Shown here piece by piece: positions 21,448 to 31,043 of a DNA stretch of 39,562 bases. This DNA is from a virus. Lineage: Duplodnaviria > Heunggongvirae > Uroviricota > Caudoviricetes. The stretch is from the IMG/VR virus record IMGVR_UViG_2690316243_000006. One strand, 5' to 3'. Under the pieces are notes generated by a model. It did no database searches. It was not told the DNA's origin and saw only the letters and a list, made by a program, of their open reading frames with translations. The translations under genes were made by a program, and so were the position numbers. Position 1 is the stretch's first letter; every line of letters starts with the position of its first letter.

Positions 21448-21527
21448 GTCAGTGTACGCTTAACTGGTAAAGTCGGTGCCTGCCTCCGGGTGGATCATGT
21501 ATGCGGGTTCGACCCCCGCCACTGACC
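21448..21527 (+). other. tRNA-like structure (perfect acceptor stem and T-arm, no anticodon stem) in the F-G spacer
   Basis: GTCAGTG pairs with CACTGAC (7 bp); T-arm GCGGG TTCGACC CCCGC; U8-A9 and a GG-containing D-loop; no 5-bp anticodon stem can be formed. Confidence 0.35.
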
Positions 21528-21528
21528 G

Positions 21529-22860
21529 TTAATCAATTTGTCCTTCCAGCACCTCAAGCATTCCGCCCCGGATATCCGATTTCAGCTTATCCATATTGAT
21601 AACCCGGTAAGCATTCACAATCACATCCAGTTTGTCGGGCTGACGTTTCAGACTGTACGGTGCATTAACGGCAATCTGCACACTGCCATCCTTATTTTCC
21701 ACGATATACATCAGATTTTTGTGCCGTTTGTCCCACAGCACCGCTTTTGGCTTTGCCAGCATTGCCGGTAAGCGCCCGAAGTCCTCTGGCATCAGGGCGA
21801 TGCCGTCATTCTGATGTTTCACACTGTCTGCATGGAGCACATTTTTACCGCTCATCGCCAGCAGGCGGGCCGGTGGCGTTCCCGTCCGGCTTTCCACTGC
21901 CTGCGCAATGCTTTCAGTCATAAAGCCCAGCGTGCGGATATCGTTACCACCTCGCCGGGTCTGCATGATGTTTTTTGCCCAGATGCGGAACGCCAGCTGC
22001 CGCTCCGGGCTGTTGTTCATCTCCTGAACCACCATTTCCCGTAACGCCGGGCTTTTCACCTCGATCAGTTTGCGGATCAGCGCCTGGTCTGTGCCGAACG
22101 CTGCCGAGCCGGGGTTATATGACCAGCCCACATCCGGTGTCATGGTTCTGGTGCCATCTGAATATGTGGTCACCGGCATTTCTCTGACTTCTCCGGTCTG
22201 TTTATCCACGCCAGCCTCAACATTGCGGGTGGAGAGATGATCCTCACCGGATGAAACGGATAACCCCATTGCATCCAGACGAGCCTGAGACAATGGCCGC
22301 ACACGGCAGCGGCAGTTCCAGCCATTAGGTGGGTAGTGTGTTTTCCAGAACGGATCGTCATAGCGGAATACCAGACCGTTAAGGGCGGAATGCGACGGGC
22401 GGGTACGGCTGTCCATGACCGCCACATACTGCCAGAACGGATGCGTGTCCGTGTTGTTCATCATCTGCGTGTAACGCCCGGCATTGTAAGCCACACGGGT
22501 GTTCACGTTGTAAATCAGCGCCAGACGACGGGGACTGCCCAGTTGCACTTCTTCCGCGTTACCGTCGCTGTCCACCACAATCTGCTTTCCCCACCATCCC
22601 AGCTTTTGCAGGCGTGGCGTCAGCGTGCGGATAAATGCTTTCTGTGAAATTCCCTCATCAATGGCCCGCTGCACTTCGGCCTGTAACGTGGTCACCACAT
22701 CCAGGCGTGCCGCTTTTGCTGCCGTGAATGAGCGGGCATGAACATCCGCGGCTGTTTCGAACCAGTTCCAGCTGATATGCGCCCCTTTGACACGGAAGTA
22801 TGCTACCGCCTCTTTTGAGGGAAGCGTGGCGGCATAACCTAAATCAATCCCCTGTGTCAT
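21529..22860 (-). CDS. Head morphogenesis protein (Mu F-like)
   Basis: 443 aa downstream of the portal gene. Confidence 0.75.
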   Translation of the reverse strand: MTQGIDLGYAATLPSKEAVAYFRVKGAHISWNWFETAADVHARSFTAAKAARLDVVTTLQAEVQRAIDEGISQKAFIRTLTPRLQKLGWWGKQIVVDSDGNAEEVQLGSPRRLALIYNVNTRVAYNAGRYTQMMNNTDTHPFWQYVAVMDSRTRPSHSALNGLVFRYDDPFWKTHYPPNGWNCRCRVRPLSQARLDAMGLSVSSGEDHLSTRNVEAGVDKQTGEVREMPVTTYSDGTRTMTPDVGWSYNPGSAAFGTDQALIRKLIEVKSPALREMVVQEMNNSPERQLAFRIWAKNIMQTRRGGNDIRTLGFMTESIAQAVESRTGTPPARLLAMSGKNVLHADSVKHQNDGIALMPEDFGRLPAMLAKPKAVLWDKRHKNLMYIVENKDGSVQIAVNAPYSLKRQPDKLDVIVNAYRVINMDKLKSDIRGGMLEVLEGQID

Positions 22861-24433
22861 CCAGCATCCCCTTCATTTCCGCAGCAAACATGGCATCACT
22901 GAGCAGCGTCATCAGGCGGGAATCATCCATTTCACGATAAAGGGCAGGCAGGTCTGCCAGCGCATCCGCCAGCCCCCGCGTTCTGATGGCATCAATGACC
23001 GGCTCCAGTACCGGGTCGATGGCCTCCTGTAAGCGGCGGGCAGGCACCGCGTCCCCCATATCATCCAGTTCATCACGCGGCGTGCTTTTCGCTTCCGGCA
23101 GTCTGGCTGACAGCGCCGTCTGCTCTGTTTTTTCCTGTTTTTCCGGTGGTGTTTCCCTGTCGGTCTGAGCCGGTTCATTGCCACTCTGACGGACACGGAA
23201 TATGGCTTCACCGGGCGTGGGCTGCGGAATACCGGTCTGCTCCCGTATCCAGGGATCAGAAATATCCATCCCCGTACTGAGCTGCATCACCGCACTGGTG
23301 ATTTTGGTGATATCACCTGGTTCTTTGGTCTGGAAGCAGATACGTGGCAGACGGCGGATATCAATAGTGTGCGTGGTGTTCAGGGCGTACAGCGGATACA
23401 CCAGATCGCGGTTCAGGGTTGCAGCCAGCTGCCGTAAATCAGAATCCCTGATTTCCCGGCGCACCTCGTTATGCACCTCACCCAGCGAGCGCGCGCCTTT
23501 GTCTCCGGCTTCCGTGGTCAGCGTGCCGCCGAGTATTGCTTTGGAGATGGAACGCTCCCCCCACGAAATCATGGTTTCAAATGGATCGGCCTGACCGTTT
23601 GCTGCCGCCTGAAATTCCAGCGACATCCCGGCCGGGATGATCCCGCCTGTACGTCGCCCGATATCCATCACCGCCCGCATCAGGGCGCTTTTCTGCTCCG
23701 GTGTTGCCCCGGACGGGTATTTCCCGACCTTCATCGGCAGTCCGTACACCTCCAGAAATTCGGCCAGATCGCGCACGGAATAGTTTTTGAAAATGAACGG
23801 CCAGATAAGCGTCCTGACAAGCCCCGTTGCGCCACCGTAACCGGTCCGTGAACGTGACTGATGCACTATCCAGCCAAAAGGCTGAAACGCCACCCCGGCA
23901 TGGCTGCCGTCACGCAGCCGCAGTTCGCTCAAATCATCCGGGTTAAGGCAGAAATGCCCGCTGTCACGCCAGCGGATGGCGCGGATGATGTGCATTTTAC
24001 CGAGCATCCCGTGCTCAATTTCCATGCAGGAATAGCCCTTCAGGATGGCATCCGTGGCGTCAAACAGCATGGCATCAAACCAGTCTGCGGAATGCAGATA
24101 TTCGTCGAGCATTTCCGCGTCCTTTTTCTCATTCGCGCTGGCGTTCGGTGGCGGCTCAATACTCCATGGCACCCCCTGAATGGCAAGACGTCGCTTGCCC
24201 AGCTCCGCAAAAAGGTGGGTGTCCTTTTCTTCAATATCAGCGGCCAGATCGGACTGGGCAATCAGATCGCCACGTTCAGCCCCGCGAAGGCACTGCGCCG
24301 CCCGGTTCGGGGTGATACCCGAAGCCGGATGTTCAATATAACGGCTGGCAATCTGCGGAATATCCAGCGCGGCACTCTGCATCTCCGGGTCAAAGGAGAA
24401 AGGTTTTCCGTCAGTATCAATGATGCGTCCCAC
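22844..24433 (-). CDS. Portal protein (Mu H-like)
   Basis: 529 aa directly after the terminase large subunit gene. Confidence 0.8.
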   Translation of the reverse strand: MGRIIDTDGKPFSFDPEMQSAALDIPQIASRYIEHPASGITPNRAAQCLRGAERGDLIAQSDLAADIEEKDTHLFAELGKRRLAIQGVPWSIEPPPNASANEKKDAEMLDEYLHSADWFDAMLFDATDAILKGYSCMEIEHGMLGKMHIIRAIRWRDSGHFCLNPDDLSELRLRDGSHAGVAFQPFGWIVHQSRSRTGYGGATGLVRTLIWPFIFKNYSVRDLAEFLEVYGLPMKVGKYPSGATPEQKSALMRAVMDIGRRTGGIIPAGMSLEFQAAANGQADPFETMISWGERSISKAILGGTLTTEAGDKGARSLGEVHNEVRREIRDSDLRQLAATLNRDLVYPLYALNTTHTIDIRRLPRICFQTKEPGDITKITSAVMQLSTGMDISDPWIREQTGIPQPTPGEAIFRVRQSGNEPAQTDRETPPEKQEKTEQTALSARLPEAKSTPRDELDDMGDAVPARRLQEAIDPVLEPVIDAIRTRGLADALADLPALYREMDDSRLMTLLSDAMFAAEMKGMLDDTGD

Positions 24434-26100
24434 TACCAGCCCCCCCGATCAAATTCATGATATGCCTCATCGTCATCACGATAACCGCCCTCCATTGCCC
24501 GCGACCGCTCCGGTAGCGCCTGACAGGCTGATTCATCCAGGATGAAGCCCTCCATGTATGACGCCCGGTTTGCCATACAGAGCGCCACGGCAAAATCACC
24601 ATGGCGGCGGGCGTTCGCAGCCGTTGCGTTCTGGTCCTTCGTGCGCCCCTTGTCGATTTGCGGGATACCATTCACTACCTTCACATGGCGCAAATCATCA
24701 AGCGTGGTCTGATGGCGGGCGACGAGGATATTCTGATCTTCAAACTCGGCTTTCAGTTTTGGCATCCACTCGCCGTACCACTTCGGCGACAACATCACGC
24801 AGTCGATGATATCCGGGCCAAAGGCCAGCAGTGCGGCCTCTGCCAGATAGCCGCCGTTACCGGTGGCGTCGAACGCCGCACCGACCAGCGCCGGAACGCG
24901 GGTCAGGATGTACATCATCACCTGTTCCTGCTGGGCATACGGCAGGTTGCGCAGCTCCACGCGAAACACCTCGCGCTTTGCCAGGGATTCGGTGATTTCC
25001 AGCAGCACAAAGCAGGACAGGTCACCGGTGCGGGCAAAGTCTTCCCCGAAGCTGAAGCGGGAACGGGGATTTAATTTCTCTAAAAGCGGTTTTAAATGTT
25101 CTTCACACCAGGTTAAAACTTCCGATTCACGCAGCCATACGGCACGGCTGATGAAGTTGTCCGGGGCTTCAAACGTCAGAATCGGGATGTCGCGGATCAT
25201 CGCCATTTCAATAAGCGCGTGGGGGATATAGGCACCGCCGGATTTTTTCGGGATACAGCCGTATTCCTCGTCGGCATCCTCACGGGTCGGGGCGTTTTTG
25301 TAGAGATCATCACGCCATTTCTGCTCGCTTTCCGGTGACCATTCCTGATCGGTGACGTAACAGATACGACGGTACAGCCCGTCCGCAATGGCATCATCCA
25401 GGGTTATGCGGTGGACGCTGTAATCCTTGCGCCCCTCGCGGGCTTCCTGAATGTACTGATTAAACAGATTATCGACGCCGTTATGCGTGGAGATAATACG
25501 CACGCGCGCGCCCCACATAGTGAGCGCCATTGCCGCCTTGAGAAGCTCATCCAGTGACTCGTGGAACGCGGCTTCATCAATCACCACATCCCCCTGAAGG
25601 CCGCGCAGGTTTGACGGACGGGAAGACAATGCCTGAATTTTGAATCCACTGTTCGGAAAGCGGATCATGTAGGTCAAAATTTCTTCTTTTTTATCCCGAT
25701 CCCAGAATGTCTGCTCATACACATCAGCATCTGCCAGCTGGTTAAAGGCACGGGAGAACAGCGCGCAGGCAGAAATATATTCCAGCGCCATCTCCTGCTT
25801 TGATCCCACATAAAACACATTGCGGCCACCACGACGCTTCGGTTTTGCAGCAGTAATGACGTTACGCCCGGCTTCCGCCCAGGTAAGACCGGTGCGGCGG
25901 GATTTCTCCGCGATGCAGACCTGACTTTCATCTGCAAACCAGCGGGCCTGATAATCCAGAAACACCGGCATATCACCGGGCAAATCAAGGCTGTCCGGCA
26001 CATCCACGCCCAGCAGGGCTTTTTCACCTGACAGATCAATTTTGCGGGGAGGCGTCATTTGCATCAGTGAAGGCGACGTTTCTCTGGCTTTGTTCATCAT
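24433..26100 (-). CDS. Terminase large subunit (Mu gp28-like)
   Basis: 555 aa; position upstream of the portal gene. Confidence 0.8.
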   Translation of the reverse strand: MMNKARETSPSLMQMTPPRKIDLSGEKALLGVDVPDSLDLPGDMPVFLDYQARWFADESQVCIAEKSRRTGLTWAEAGRNVITAAKPKRRGGRNVFYVGSKQEMALEYISACALFSRAFNQLADADVYEQTFWDRDKKEEILTYMIRFPNSGFKIQALSSRPSNLRGLQGDVVIDEAAFHESLDELLKAAMALTMWGARVRIISTHNGVDNLFNQYIQEAREGRKDYSVHRITLDDAIADGLYRRICYVTDQEWSPESEQKWRDDLYKNAPTREDADEEYGCIPKKSGGAYIPHALIEMAMIRDIPILTFEAPDNFISRAVWLRESEVLTWCEEHLKPLLEKLNPRSRFSFGEDFARTGDLSCFVLLEITESLAKREVFRVELRNLPYAQQEQVMMYILTRVPALVGAAFDATGNGGYLAEAALLAFGPDIIDCVMLSPKWYGEWMPKLKAEFEDQNILVARHQTTLDDLRHVKVVNGIPQIDKGRTKDQNATAANARRHGDFAVALCMANRASYMEGFILDESACQALPERSRAMEGGYRDDDEAYHEFDRGGW

Positions 26101-26345
26101 GCTTTACCTGTCAGAATGCTTTTGATTCGGGACTCAAGCTCTTCAGTCATCACGTCCACGCCGCTCAACTCATCAGTGGCAGCCTCTGCCAGCAGCGAAT
26201 GCAGTTGTTCCAGGGATATTTCCCCGGCAATGCTGAGTTCAGTCAACTCACGACATACCTTTATGGTTTCAGGAGGTAACTGTGTTGCAAGACTGAATGC
26301 TTTCTGATGGGCACTGCTCATCAGTGAGCGGTTATCTGTTGCCAT
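26097..26345 (-). CDS. Hypothetical protein (82 aa) whose C-terminus resembles that of the adjacent gp27-like protein
   Basis: C-terminus TDELSGVDVMTEELESRIKSILTGKA versus TDELRGVDGMSEQIEFRIRQMLLGKA in the 193-aa protein. Confidence 0.5.
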   Translation of the reverse strand: MATDNRSLMSSAHQKAFSLATQLPPETIKVCRELTELSIAGEISLEQLHSLLAEAATDELSGVDVMTEELESRIKSILTGKA

Positions 26346-26355
26346 GATTCACCTC

Positions 26356-26937
26356 CTACGCCTTACCCAGCAGCATCTGCCTGATACGGAATTCGATCTG
26401 CTCGCTCATGCCATCCACGCCGCGCAACTCATCGGTGACCGCATTCGCCATCTCTTCAGCAAATGCGGCCCGGATTTCTTTTTCACGCTTAATGCTGCGC
26501 TCGGCGGCACTTTCTGCACGCTGTGCCGACAGGAGGATGTCCTTAATAAGGCGCATATCCACATCGCTGTCGCTGTTCAGGGATTCGGTGGCGGCACGCA
26601 GACGGCGGTACATCAGGGCACGGGACATCTCCAGAATCAGTGCCGTGGTTTCACCGGTCGGCTTATCCCCCAGTTCGGCCATCATGGCTTTTGTCTGCTC
26701 GCGTAAATCACGCAGATTACGGGCAATCAGCTCATTACGGGAGGCTTCCCGGCTGATGGCCGCCGGTGAGAGCTGCTGCTCTTCCGGCAGACCTGCTTCA
26801 CGGATCAGACGGTTGATTTCCTCGCGGATCTGGACCTGCGTCAGACGTTTTTCACGCAGCATTTCCAGCAGCGGCTTACGGATGCTGTCGGGGAGCAAAT
26901 CCACCTTGCGTACACGGCCACGCGTTGGCTTATCCAT
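26356..26937 (-). CDS. Mu gp27-like protein (putative terminase small subunit / DNA-binding)
   Basis: 193 aa immediately upstream of the terminase large subunit gene. Confidence 0.6.
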   Translation of the reverse strand: MDKPTRGRVRKVDLLPDSIRKPLLEMLREKRLTQVQIREEINRLIREAGLPEEQQLSPAAISREASRNELIARNLRDLREQTKAMMAELGDKPTGETTALILEMSRALMYRRLRAATESLNSDSDVDMRLIKDILLSAQRAESAAERSIKREKEIRAAFAEEMANAVTDELRGVDGMSEQIEFRIRQMLLGKA

Positions 26938-26939
26938 CG

Positions 26940-27230
26940 TTACCCCCTTGCGCGTGGTTTCTTCACACCCGGAACGGTGGCGCGGCCTTCCGCCACATCC
27001 TGACCCCGGCCGGTCAGTTCAGCGATGAAATAACCGTTAACAAGCGTGCGCTTACGCACCAGTCCCTGCTCGGCAAGCCAGGCAATGTGGGTATGAACGG
27101 TGTCGCGGGACACGCGGTGACCGTAATCATCCAGGCAGTCCTGAAGCACGGATTCGCCCAGTTCGCCGTTGTAATCCGCCAGCGACCGCAGAATGACAAG
27201 ACGCTGATCTTCAGTAATGAAATCACTCAT
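26940..27230 (-). CDS. Small winged-helix-like protein (Mu gp26 position)
   Basis: 96 aa; VSRDTVHTHIAWLAEQGLVRKR resembles a wHTH recognition helix. Confidence 0.5.
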   Translation of the reverse strand: MSDFITEDQRLVILRSLADYNGELGESVLQDCLDDYGHRVSRDTVHTHIAWLAEQGLVRKRTLVNGYFIAELTGRGQDVAEGRATVPGVKKPRARG

Positions 27231-27534
27231 TGTGTTTTTTCCTTACAGCCTGCTCCAGCAGCAGTTCGTTCTGATGGGAGACGGATTTCAGGGTGGCATT
27301 GGTGGCCTTAAGCTCACCGCGCAGGGTGGTGATTTCGATATTGAGTCTGTTCACCTCCTGCTGCGTGGGCAGGCCGGAAATCCGGCTCTCCACCCGCTCA
27401 ACCCGGTCGGAGAGTTTTTCAAAGGCCTCGCGGGGGACAAAGGTTTTGCGCATCAGCGCCATGAAGATCCCCCCGGCTGTGGCCGTTGCCGACAGGATCG
27501 GCACGACATAATCTTTAACGATGCTGACCCACAT
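27223..27534 (-). CDS. Membrane-anchored protein (Mu gp25 position; lysis-associated candidate)
   Basis: 103 aa; N-terminal hydrophobic segment VVPILSATATAGGIFMALM then a coiled-coil-like region. Confidence 0.5.
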   Translation of the reverse strand: MWVSIVKDYVVPILSATATAGGIFMALMRKTFVPREAFEKLSDRVERVESRISGLPTQQEVNRLNIEITTLRGELKATNATLKSVSHQNELLLEQAVRKKHNE

Positions 27535-29482: not shown

Positions 29483-29995
29483 TTAACGGGGGAATGATTT
29501 TTCATACAGCCTGCAAACACGCTCATAACTCATCACTGCACGTTCCGACATATCCAGGGCTGCCAGCATTTTGCGGCGGTGCCAGCGTTTGAGACGCTCC
29601 AGCACATCAGAGGCCAGCGCGGGTTGTTGCTCCAGCCACTGCCAGTTAGCCACACCTTCGCCGTCGTTCTGCGCGGCCGTCTGCGATTTCACCCAGCGGT
29701 TAAGGGCCGTTTCCCCGCCATCAGAGATAAATCCCTGCCGGTGCATCACTTTCCAGATGGCGCGAATTTTGGCGGTCACCGTACCCGGTTTTAAGGCCCG
29801 GTTAACCGGCTTCTGACGCACTTTAAAACCGCGTTTTTTGAAAACATCCAGCACGCGGGATAACTCACCGGGTGACATATCACGGCAACTGGATTTGCCG
29901 GTGGCTGCCAGCAGCGCGGATGTATAGGTATCATGGTCAAGCTGTAGATCGCGTTTTGCGACATGTATTAAGGTAATCAGGGAAGCGCGATTCAT
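29483..29995 (-). CDS. gemA: GemA-like protein (Mu gp16 family)
   Basis: MNRASLITLIHVAKRDLQLDHDTYTSALLAATGKSSCRDMSPGELSRVLDVFKKRGF matches my recollection of the gp16 family N-terminus. Confidence 0.65.
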   Translation of the reverse strand: MNRASLITLIHVAKRDLQLDHDTYTSALLAATGKSSCRDMSPGELSRVLDVFKKRGFKVRQKPVNRALKPGTVTAKIRAIWKVMHRQGFISDGGETALNRWVKSQTAAQNDGEGVANWQWLEQQPALASDVLERLKRWHRRKMLAALDMSERAVMSYERVCRLYEKSFPR

Positions 29996-30011
29996 TATCG
30001 TGGCTCCATAA

Positions 30012-30037
30012 AAAATGGGCGGTGTTACCGCACCGCC
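30012..30037 (-). terminator. Intrinsic terminator or attenuator just upstream of gemA
   Basis: Minus-strand hairpin GGCGGTG/CACCGCC (30018-30037) followed by CAUUUUUUAU, ending about 15 nt before the gemA RBS. Confidence 0.5.
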
Positions 30038-30065
30038 ATGTCAATTAACATAAAAGGAAAAATCT

Positions 30066-30305
30066 ATGTCAGATATAAAAAATGCACTTGATGTTGCCGC
30101 ATTCACAATGGCTGGAAATCTTATGGTAACCCTGTTCGATAAGGGGCTGATTTCCCGTGAGGAGGCAATACATATTATCAATCTCGCTCAAAAAAACTCT
30201 ACCCCGGAAAATGCAGAAGATATCCAGGATGGCTCATATATTAATACCGACTGGCATTTCGACAATCTCCGGGCCTGTATGGGGATTACCGCTGAAAAAG
30301 ATTAA
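30066..30305 (+). CDS. Hypothetical protein (79 aa) on the opposite strand to the early operon
   Basis: AAGGA RBS 8 nt before the ATG; AT-rich island; 3' end overlaps the convergent minus-strand ORF by 20 nt. Confidence 0.4.
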   Translation: MSDIKNALDVAAFTMAGNLMVTLFDKGLISREEAIHIINLAQKNSTPENAEDIQDGSYINTDWHFDNLRACMGITAEKD

Positions 30306-30571
30306 AAATTTTTGCATAATGTTCAGATGTAAGAATTGCTGAACCATCAACACCGAGCCTGCGGCGAACGTATTCCTCGCGGGCTATTTTATTATCCAGA
30401 GATACAGCATCCTTAATCAGGTTAATCTCCCGCTCCATTATCAAAAGGGCTTCTCTGGCTGCAAGATTTTCTTTTATCGCATATTCGATAATGTCCCGCA
30501 TACGTTCAAGCATGCCGATTTTAGCCAGTTCTTCGTCGATAGATTTAGGCGCAAATTTGATTTCTTTTTCC
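30286..30571 (-). CDS. Hypothetical charged helical protein (about 95 aa; start taken at MEKEIK)
   Basis: Start overlaps the stop of the upstream zinc-ribbon ORF; Glu/Lys/Arg-rich. Confidence 0.45.
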
Positions 30572-30574
30572 ATA

Positions 30575-30718
30575 TTATTCATCCTCACAATTTATACATG
30601 CAGTGTCGTCGCCCATATCGCAGTGGTTACATTTTATCTCACCACAATGTGGGCACTCTTTCAGATACTCCGGGTCCTCATTTCCACAGGTGGGACATTC
30701 AACAATTTGCTCATCCAT
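30575..30718 (-). CDS. Small zinc-ribbon protein (47 aa, four CxxC motifs)
   Basis: MDEQIVECPTCGNEDPEYLKECPHCGEIKCNHCDMGDDTACINCEDE; ATG 2 nt after the stop of the upstream gene; not in the supplied ORF track (under 60 aa). Confidence 0.45.
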   Translation of the reverse strand: MDEQIVECPTCGNEDPEYLKECPHCGEIKCNHCDMGDDTACINCEDE

Positions 30719-31043
30719 TATGTATCCCCTGTAATTCCGGCAAGGCCGAAAGATGGCACCAGTGCGTCACCTGTCCGTCCTCATCTTCAAGGCAGGCTCC
30801 GGTTTCTTCATCAATAAAAAAGCCTTCATACCCCATATGGCCGATGCGCAGTTCCTGTTGGTCACCATACTGAACAATCAGCACGACAGCCTCCATATCA
30901 GGCGGAAATGCGTCATCCAGTGAATGCCAGGGATAACCGCGCAAATCCCCGAAATAAACGCCGGTCAGCGTTCCGCCACAGAGCGGCATTCCGGCGGCAC
31001 ACACAAGAGGTTCATCTGATTCAACAAATAAGGTCGTTATCAT
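30711..31043 (-). CDS. Hypothetical strongly acidic protein (110 aa)
   Basis: About 19 Asp/Glu against very few basic residues; early-region position. Confidence 0.5.
   Translation of the reverse strand: MITTLFVESDEPLVCAAGMPLCGGTLTGVYFGDLRGYPWHSLDDAFPPDMEAVVLIVQYGDQQELRIGHMGYEGFFIDEETGACLEDEDGQVTHWCHLSALPELQGIHNG

Follow-up and report, generated by a model that had tools for sequence, protein, structure and literature searches.

Why should two adjacent phage proteins with little else in common end in the same peptide? The question is raised by a Mu-like prophage of Escherichia coli, represented by the 39,562-nt IMG/VR record IMGVR_UViG_2690316243_000006 (this whole stretch is referred to below as the window), in which the genes considered here lie on the minus strand. 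Directly upstream of the gene for the terminase large subunit (TerL) are two open reading frames (ORFs), one of 193 amino acids (aa) encoding gp27, the terminase small subunit (TerS), and one of 82 aa encoding a protein that we call p82. We find that p82 is an optional chimera, in which a copy of the C-terminal motif of gp27 is joined to a member of a separate small-protein family. Within the late operon of this E. coli Mu-like prophage, p82 is an accessory gene, non-essential and restricted to certain lineages. The elements of the locus are as follows.

26356–26937, minus: gp27, the TerS gene, 193 aa; stop codon TAG at 26356–26358
26359–26451, minus: tail A, gp27 residues 163–193 (MANAVTDELRGVDGMSEQIEFRIRQMLLGKA); 26-aa core at 26359–26436
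26346–26358, minus: gp27 stop codon and 10-nt spacer with a consensus Shine–Dalgarno motif, read from the sequence
26097–26345, minus: p82, an acidic (pI 4.7), helical accessory protein of 82 aa; N-domain plus gp27-type tail
26178–26345, minus: p82 N-domain (residues 1–56), of a family of small proteins encoded after gp27
26100–26192, minus: tail B, p82 residues 52–82 (LAEAATDELSGVDVMTEELESRIKSILTGKA); 26-aa core at 26100–26177
26095–26100, minus: stop/start overlap GCATGATGAAC; the p82 TGA (26097–26099) overlaps both candidate TerL ATGs
24433–26097/26100, minus: TerL, the Mu gp28 homologue, 554/555 aa
26040–26460, minus: mosaic patch, comprising tail A, p82 and the first ~20 codons of TerL

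The shared C-terminal peptide

The first-pass annotation of this DNA had reported that the two adjacent proteins share a C-terminal peptide and show little similarity elsewhere. Both observations hold. The ORF coordinates are exact, and BLASTP aligns gp27 residues 163–193 with p82 residues 52–82, with 18 of 31 residues identical, 24 of 31 positive and E = 3e-10. The pairwise comparison that had been proposed as a check is thus significant, with 58% identity between tails A and B, and this was the one BLASTP alignment above noise. A six-frame tblastn search of the whole window agrees, each tail matching itself and the other tail only (E = 8e-9; next match E > 0.5). In addition, gp27 residues 162–193 match positions 51–82 of phrog_30922, the family profile of p82, with E = 6e-8. 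At the DNA level the 93-nt segments encoding the two tails are visibly diverged, and they were not picked up by the DNA repeat finder when it was run over 25800–27400.

In the AlphaFold2 models of both proteins, a helix is predicted to end within the shared segment and to be followed by a loop (RGVDGMS in gp27, SGVDVMT in p82) and then by a short helix at the terminus. The gp27 model is all-helical and of low confidence (pLDDT 57), with the end of a long helix followed by the loop at residues 172–178 and a helix at 179–189. The p82 model has four helices (residues 3–22, 25–39, 45–60 and 68–79; pLDDT 70). By its sequence, the p82 segment 57–82 is a diverged paralogue of the gp27 C-terminal loop-helix. 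The suggestion of a partial duplication also stands, in that tail B is a paralogous copy of the gp27 C-terminal motif, and forms of the locus with and without p82 (long and short forms) differ by one repeat period, 259 nt.

A separate observation concerns the DNA word CA(C/T)(A/G)TCCACGCC, which encodes G-V-D on the minus strand and occurs at 25999–26016, 26151–26162 and 26412–26427. This word is common to the TerL N-terminus, tail B and tail A, and may be there by chance; TerL reads LLGVDVPDSLD, and tail B reads LSGVDVMTEEL.

The way in which the three genes are joined is also apparent from the DNA. The gp27 TAG is followed by GAGGTGAATC and then by the ATG of p82, so that p82 starts 10 nt past the gp27 stop codon on the same strand. 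The Shine–Dalgarno motif AGGAGGT, at 26351–26357, overlaps that stop codon and ends 6 nt before the p82 start; it is kept in all long-form alleles, whether these start with ATG or GTG, and in the allele encoding p67, a relative of p82 described below. At its other end p82 runs into the two candidate TerL start codons (26098–26100 and 26095–26097). Since no promoter-like site and no convincing terminator were found in 25800–27400, gp27, p82 and TerL, linked stop-to-start, are predicted to be carried on one late transcript. Specifically, no sigma-70-like promoter was found in this interval, and the four terminator-like signals in it (1.5 in shuffled sequences) were weak and lay within coding sequence. 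A gp27–p82 read-through fusion is ruled out, as a TAA lies eight codons past the gp27 TAG and p82 is in another frame.

An optional gene of a separate protein family

Judged by profile matches, p82 is a member of phrog_30922 (function unassigned), which it matches with E = 7e-52 over residues 2–82, and is not a TerS. It gave no match to PF11985 (E ≤ 0.1) or to phrog_426 (E ≤ 0.01), the two TerS profiles discussed below, and only its last 31 aa are gp27-like. RefSeq labels it a hypothetical protein, and identical copies of it are present on at least 1000 contigs from E. coli, Shigella and E. albertii. An exhaustive phmmer search of 1.84 billion representatives returned six matches, namely three p82-family variants (two of them frameshifted), p67, and two that are repeat-protein noise. 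The p67 protein is 67 aa long, has 57% identity to p82 residues 1–56 and carries no tail. Its contig, from an E. coli-type prophage, has gp27 with an identical tail A, the same spacer and Shine–Dalgarno motif, p67, 120 nt and then TerL.

Relatives were also found in Salmonella, where the genes for orf69, orf65 and orf87 lie directly after gp27 in Mu-like prophages. Salmonella orf69 is 38% identical to p82 over 42 aa and 36% identical to p67 over 53 aa, orf65 is 30% identical to orf69, and orf87 is 33% identical to orf65. The genes for p82, p67 and orf69 start 7–10 nt past the gp27 stop codon on the same strand. For p67 and orf69, the match to phrog_30922 is confined to the N-terminal part (E = 3e-14 and 5e-5, respectively). 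Proteins of the N-domain family thus vary in their C-termini. A profile of the N-domain identified 46 clusters, all from E. coli and Salmonella, all labelled ‘hypothetical’ and none with a Pfam domain; cluster look-ups extended p82 itself to Shigella and E. albertii. Truncated and frameshifted variants apart, family members are 65–89 aa long. Pfam, NCBIfam and PADLOC gave nothing for p82, p67, orf65, orf69, orf87 or the associated reverse-strand genes rev72 and rev162 (see below), a fold search with the p82 model against BFVD and the PDB gave a best E of 0.9 or worse, and the literature searched gave no description of the N-domain family or of the shared tail.

No significant gp27-like tail was present in the other family members whose sequences were examined (p67, orf69, orf65 and orf87). 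A candidate degenerate tail in Salmonella orf87 (‘EGLRGAELYLFVRYFVGKTS’) was rejected as not significant (shuffle P = 0.11–0.30). Two of the Salmonella proteins, orf65 (locus L025, 3090–3287) and orf69 (locus L023, 3093–3302), also match phrog_220 (‘minor head protein and DNA pilot’) weakly, with E = 8e-6 and 6e-3, respectively, at about positions 916–972 of its 1338; fused or mis-clustered members of phrog_220 may explain these.

The distribution of p82 was determined by searching 5426 complete E. coli genomes with a 1001-nt query. The region was present in 230 of them, most matching only 742 of the 1001 nt, and the unique part of p82 in only 25, at 29 places (as many as three in one genome, each at a different site). 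The tested kilobase of the window is 100% identical to the chromosome of E. coli strain 102651. When five long and five short forms were aligned, a single gap of 259 nt separated them, which is exactly the spacing between the starts of tails A and B. In the short form, gp27 ends ...TDELRGVDGMSEQLESRIKGILLGKA and overlaps TerL via TGATG. Long and short forms are 65–85% identical from ~26460 to ~26040 and 92–100% identical on both sides, and this interval is therefore a mosaic patch. The base composition of the p82 N-domain is foreign to its surroundings, with a GC content of 47.7% (26193–26345) versus 55–59% in the flanks. For one short form, that of E. coli 2015C-3121, the annotation makes gp27 (locus L007, 2598–3179) a pseudogene interrupted by a stop codon, so that decay is under way in some copies of this prophage type.

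It had been asked of the 82-aa gene that it should not be absent from all relatives. It is not, as seen above, but it is absent from most of them. It is lacking in ~90% of E. coli prophages of this type and in Mu, D108, SfMu and the Pseudomonas, Vibrio and Pasteurella Mu-like phages. In Mu, Vibrio 1.028.O, JBD25, JBD67 and Pasteurella Pmp9, gp27 directly abuts TerL.

The TerS–TerL junction is a recurrent cargo hotspot in Mu-like phages. Among 80 IMG/VR Mu-like loci surveyed, the gp27–TerL gap was ≤30 nt in 61, >30 nt in 19 and >120 nt in 15. The cargo in the gap was varied and included lipoprotein-like ORFs of 63–67 aa, a 55-aa membrane-like ORF and members of the N-domain family, some of these accompanied by a second gene or a reverse-strand gene. 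Only in the p82 loci was a tail held in common with the locus's own gp27 (Smith–Waterman score 90, z = 16.7), other plausible ORFs in the gap scoring near or below z = 2. With its precise presence or absence and its deviant base composition, p82 has the marks of accessory cargo; a promoter and terminator of its own were not found in 25800–27400. Three of the surveyed loci have a Pseudomonas-type gp27 tail and other cargo. Two carry 63–67-aa ORFs with a lipoprotein-like signal (…LVGC…; L061, 2274–2465, and L086, 2241–2444) and the third carries a 55-aa hydrophobic ORF at the TerS–TerL junction (L065, 2329–2496). These may be exclusion or membrane morons.

The gp27 tail and the divergence of its copy

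On its profile matches gp27 is an ordinary PF11985 member. It is a full-length match to the family, with E = 3e-33 over residues 12–193 for Phage_Mu_Gp27 (PF11985; DUF3486) and E = 9e-55 for phrog_426, ‘terminase small subunit’, and its identity to Mu gp27 is 57%. The genes follow one another as in Mu, in the order DUF2730, gp26-like, gp27, (p82), TerL, portal, MuF, so that gp27 has the position of its family, and the DUF935/portal and then the MuF genes lie downstream of TerL. TerL matches phrog_2, ‘terminase large subunit’, with E = 6e-43 and is 74% identical to Mu gp28 over about 490 aa. It has no Pfam match at E ≤ 0.1 (24433–26097) and is a ‘hypothetical protein’ in RefSeq, while Mu gp28 (locus L017, 2084–3573) is labelled ‘putative portal protein’ in NC_000929. 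Because of the phrog_2 match, both cases look like gaps or mistakes in annotation.

In family alignments, conservation within gp27 is highest in the tail. Over the 65 non-redundant loci of the survey, the tail and TerL each had a mean identity of 74%, as against 40% for the gp27 body, and the partial rank correlation between tail and TerL, given the body, was 0.34 (permutation P = 0.001). Pairwise identities show that the tail type switches with the TerL clade:

E. coli versus JBD25: gp27 body 26%, tail 69–77%, TerL 70%
Mu versus JBD67: gp27 body 22%, tail 77%, TerL 75%
E. coli versus Vibrio 1.028.O: gp27 body 35%, tail 23%, TerL 50% (other TerL clade)
E. coli versus Pmp9: gp27 body 36%, tail 19–23%, TerL 51% (other TerL clade)

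The DNA similarity between JBD25 and JBD67 likewise sets in at nt 435 of the TerS gene, where the tail begins, and extends into TerL. The gp27 tails are thus extreme C-terminal segments whose conservation follows TerL and not the TerS body. Since the tail is conserved like TerL and its type follows the TerL clade, it is probably a TerL-matching, or TerL-docking, element. In the 26-residue core the near-invariant residues are E3, R5, G6, D8, G9, M10, S11, E12, E15, I18, L22, L/M23, G24 and K25.

The first-pass annotation had reasoned from the general rule that small terminase subunits contact the large subunit through their C-terminus. For the gp27 family the support is indirect, consisting of the conservation of the tail and its tracking of the TerL clade; published binding is that of lambda and P22, in which C-terminal residues of TerS bind the TerL N-terminus (PMC9611059). 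The gp27 tail is comparable to P22 gp3 residues 140–162 and the C-terminus of lambda gpNu1, each a short segment at the extreme C-terminus of TerS that matches, or in gp27 probably matches, TerL. It is predicted to be flexible and helical, as are the P22 and lambda tails. The difference is that here a second, non-TerS protein, p82, carries a copy of the tail. A search of PDB sequences with gp27 gave nothing below E = 0.35, and thus no related solved structure.

The two copies of the tail have fared differently. Substitutions counted among five long-form alleles were distributed as follows:

gp27 body: 24 synonymous, 1 nonsynonymous
tail A: 6 synonymous, 0 nonsynonymous
p82 N-domain: 8 synonymous, 15 nonsynonymous
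tail B: 4 synonymous, 6 nonsynonymous

The synonymous to nonsynonymous counts are 30:1 for gp27 versus 12:21 for p82 (Fisher P = 2e-7), and 6:0 for tail A versus 4:6 for tail B (Fisher P = 0.03). In these alleles gp27 is under strongly purifying selection, and neutrality was not rejected for either the N-domain or the tail of p82 within E. coli (P about 0.3). Thus, p82 is under much weaker constraint than gp27. Over the longer distance between p82 and p67, the N-domain has dN 0.30 and dS 0.95, a ratio of 0.32, where dS for the flanking genes is 0.26 and 0.09. Given this ratio, and a dS far above that of the flanks, the N-domain is a real gene, one that evolves fast and whose allelic diversity is old. 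Across 27 distinct alleles of 82 aa, 27 of the 56 N-domain sites and 8 of the 26 tail sites are variable.

The divergence of tail B also affects the core. Residues S61, V65, T67 and T79 (core changes R5S, G9V, S11T and L23T) replace near-invariant residues, while the other ten such positions are kept. None of the four was ever seen in 78 distinct gp27 tails, where the usual residues occur in 74 (R), 77 (G), 77 (S) and 76 (L/M) of the 78, and all four are fixed in the 27 p82 alleles save for a single T79R. By residue count, the best match to tail B is the tail of the short-form gp27, with 20 of 26 core positions the same and 71% identity over 31 aa by tblastn.

Origin and possible roles of p82

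The reading towards which we lean, if by a modest degree, is that p82 is a recombination chimera at the junction of the gp27 3′ end and the TerL start, its tail kept by translational coupling and its affinity for TerL attenuated or residual. Recombination would have joined a cargo gene in frame to a native gp27-3′-end/TerL-start junction. In the long form gp27 retains its own complete tail, and it is p82, in place of gp27, whose stop codon overlaps the TerL start; in short-form relatives gp27 and TerL are joined by a stop/start overlap in the same way (TGATG). The copied tail would be kept mainly because the ORF must reach the TerL start, so that the frame stays open and coupling is preserved, and any remaining affinity for TerL would be attenuated, p82 not being a dedicated competitor. 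The duplication is then most likely a recombination scar, and the activity of p82 probably resides in the N-domain. Phages with p82 look viable, as judged from its occurrence in up to three copies per genome and on at least 1000 contigs. Described in these terms, p82 would be accessory cargo at the TerS–TerL junction, fused to a copy of its neighbour's C-terminal motif.

Several points weigh against this account. The p82 tail is not more variable than the N-domain (8/26 versus 27/56 sites in the 27 alleles) and the hydrophobic pattern of its terminal helix is kept; the tail peptide may be under some constraint, and hence may have some function. The dN/dS of tail B is 0.2–0.5, not 1, though the changes are too few to distinguish it from 1. 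No donor lineage was found for the mosaic patch, so that the order of events, fusion as opposed to tail loss in the relatives, is one that we infer. Finally, the proposed translational coupling is read from the stop/start overlaps only.

A precedent for small genes at this position is the Pseudomonas Mu-like phage JBD26, in which tab, on the reverse strand, and atab occupy the TerS–TerL interval (Patel et al. 2024, PMC10884400). Anti-Tab, the product of JBD26 gene 30, is 83 aa long and is encoded directly after TerS on the late-operon strand (PMC10884400), as is p82. The likeness of p82 to anti-Tab is one of position only. In BLASTP comparisons of p82, p67 and gp27 with JBD26 Tab, anti-Tab, TerS and TerL nothing fell below E = 1, and JBD26 TerS is not a gp27-family protein, nor does anti-Tab share a tail with its TerS. 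There is no room in the window for a Tab-like reverse-strand gene with a promoter between p82 and TerL; antisense ORFs of 63 and 70 aa inside p82 had no matches. In some relatives of p82 the layout is more Tab-like, with a convergent reverse-strand gene before TerL. These genes are rev72 (72 aa; Salmonella, L023, 3429–3647, minus) and rev162 (162 aa; IMG/VR, L105, 1928–2416, minus), which are homologous to each other (41% identity over 59 aa, E = 7e-16) and have no Pfam or PADLOC match. By analogy, one might speculate that the p82 N-domain serves as an antidote or counter-defence factor like anti-Tab.

How far, then, might the tail of p82 be functional? The idea of the first-pass annotation that p82 competes for or shares the TerL interaction is somewhat disfavoured. 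In its strongest form, in which p82 is a functional mimic that docks on TerL through the copied tail, either competing with gp27 (in terminase assembly or the tuning of pac cleavage) or tethering its N-domain to the packaging motor, we regard it as possible and rather doubtful. Tail B is a full-length copy of a motif that co-varies with TerL, 22 of its 26 core residues occur in genuine gp27 tails, including most of the near-invariant ones (E3, G6, D8, M10, E12, E15, I18, L22, G24 and K25), and the fact that it is no more variable than the N-domain among the 27 alleles would suit a working peptide. A strong Shine–Dalgarno motif and predicted co-expression with TerS and TerL also favour the idea, and binding of the TerS C-terminus to the TerL N-terminus is established in lambda and P22 (PMC9611059). 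Against this are the residues never found in TerS tails at four near-invariant positions (R, G, S and L/M), the far weaker selection on tail B than on the tail of gp27, the lack of a detectable tail in p67, orf69, orf65 and orf87, and the absence of the gene from ~90% of sister prophages and from all the characterised Mu-like phages examined. Furthermore, an efficient competitor made from a consensus ribosome-binding site should harm packaging, and the phages carrying p82 are abundant and multi-copy. A counter-defence role with a decoy tail we consider improbable. Here the N-domain family would supply the antidote to an inhibitor that prophages express from the reverse strand, much as in Tab/anti-Tab but in enterobacteria, and the tail copy in p82 would be bait for an inhibitor directed against the TerS tail or the terminase. 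Position, strand and size fit anti-Tab (82 versus 83 aa, directly after TerS in the late operon), a convergent reverse-strand gene follows the family gene in two lineages (rev72 and rev162), and the low GC content, rapid evolution and deeply diverged alleles (dS 0.95 versus 0.09–0.26 in the flanks) are in keeping with such a role. However, there is no sequence likeness to Tab or anti-Tab and no PADLOC match for any partner, neither a reverse-strand gene nor a promoter-like site is present at this place in the window, most family members lack a reverse partner, and the decoy idea is without direct support. A combination of the two would make p82 a natural TerS-tail mimic. With the captured TerL-docking peptide it would either bring its N-domain to the packaging motor or draw off an inhibitor directed at the terminase, and it would be part of an undescribed enterobacterial defence/antidote system (the N-domain family with rev72/rev162) at the TerS–TerL hotspot, analogous to Tab/anti-Tab. 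This we regard as unlikely, if worth stating.

The remaining alternatives concern how the similarity arose. A tandem duplication of a 259-nt unit, consisting of the gp27 tail and the first ~51 TerL codons, would make the N-domain a diverged TerL N-terminus. The unit length equals that of the indel, the TerL N-terminus is the best non-self match to the N-domain in the window (E = 0.05) with a Smith–Waterman score of 37 (shuffle P = 0.0008), and the 9-mer TCACTGATG is common to both, almost in register. Set against these, the profile–profile probability from hhalign is 0.2%, the DNA alignment is no better than that of codon shuffles (P = 0.54), there is a separate N-domain family in Salmonella without TerL likeness, and the GC content of the N-domain is foreign to the flanks. 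The hhalign result, the DNA test and the separate family leave the derivation of the N-domain from TerL unsupported and largely refuted, and we give it very little weight. As for a chance similarity or a non-coding ORF, the shared region is short (31 aa) and p82 is near-neutral within E. coli, but such a reading is refuted by the E-values of the tail match (3e-10 pairwise, 8e-9 against the whole window), by an 82-aa ORF that stays intact across 27 distinct alleles and at least 1000 contigs, and by the consensus Shine–Dalgarno motif and the dN/dS of 0.32 against p67; its likelihood is negligible. The recombination chimera thus remains the reading that we prefer.

Other known systems resemble p82 in part. 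The morons or regions of genomic plasticity of Mu-like phages are small accessory ORFs at a fixed site (Cazares et al. 2014, PMC4378225). Like these, p82 has a low GC content and is polymorphic in its presence among close relatives. Unlike them, it has no promoter or terminator of its own, is embedded in the late operon and, it would appear, translationally linked to it, and is fused to a copy of its neighbour's C-terminus. Ppi of Staphylococcus aureus pathogenicity islands (SaPIs), Rpp of phage-inducible chromosomal islands (PICIs) and satellite TerS homologues are satellite-encoded proteins that bind or replace TerS and redirect packaging. They are small proteins that affect the pairing of TerS with TerL, as p82 might; p82 differs in being encoded in cis by the phage itself. 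In lambda C/Nu3 and similar protease–scaffold pairs, internal initiation in a single ORF yields two proteins with a shared C-terminus that is 100% identical. As with C/Nu3, gp27 and p82 are products of one operon that end alike and could reach the same partner; here, in contrast, there are two separate ORFs, with tails 58% identical through duplication or recombination.

If these readings are right, the 26-residue gp27 tail becomes a candidate TerL-matching element of Mu-type small terminases, for which p82 provides a natural set of variants with four changes at near-invariant positions. The TerS–TerL hotspot would be general across Mu-like phages (19 of 80 loci with >30 nt), beyond the Tab/anti-Tab of Pseudomonas, and the small-protein family, sometimes with its reverse-strand gene, would be a candidate defence/counter-defence pair of E. 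coli and Salmonella prophages. The locus would also show how cargo comes to lie between two essential genes that are coupled in translation and leaves both intact, through duplication of their boundary. If the tail is only a scar, the locus is a case of ordinary phage mosaicism.

Three further features of the window may be mentioned. RefSeq places a ‘tRNA-OTHER’ on the plus strand at ~21448–21535 (L002, 15449–15536), in the head-gene block of the identical prophage; ARAGORN found no tRNA anywhere in the window. The interval 29800–30800 is low in GC (41–45% versus about 56%) and contains a plus-strand gene labelled DUF2513 by RefSeq (30060–30470, equivalent to L002 24061–24471), which is opposite to the surrounding phage genes and looks like another moron. 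Upstream of gp27, the gp26-like gene at 26940–27230 (minus) belongs to the VpaChn25_0724 family (E = 3e-34) and has weak winged-helix/HTH matches. On one Logan contig the gp26-like protein is fused to gp27 (P0016, 291 aa), and it could be a DNA-recognition partner of the small terminase.

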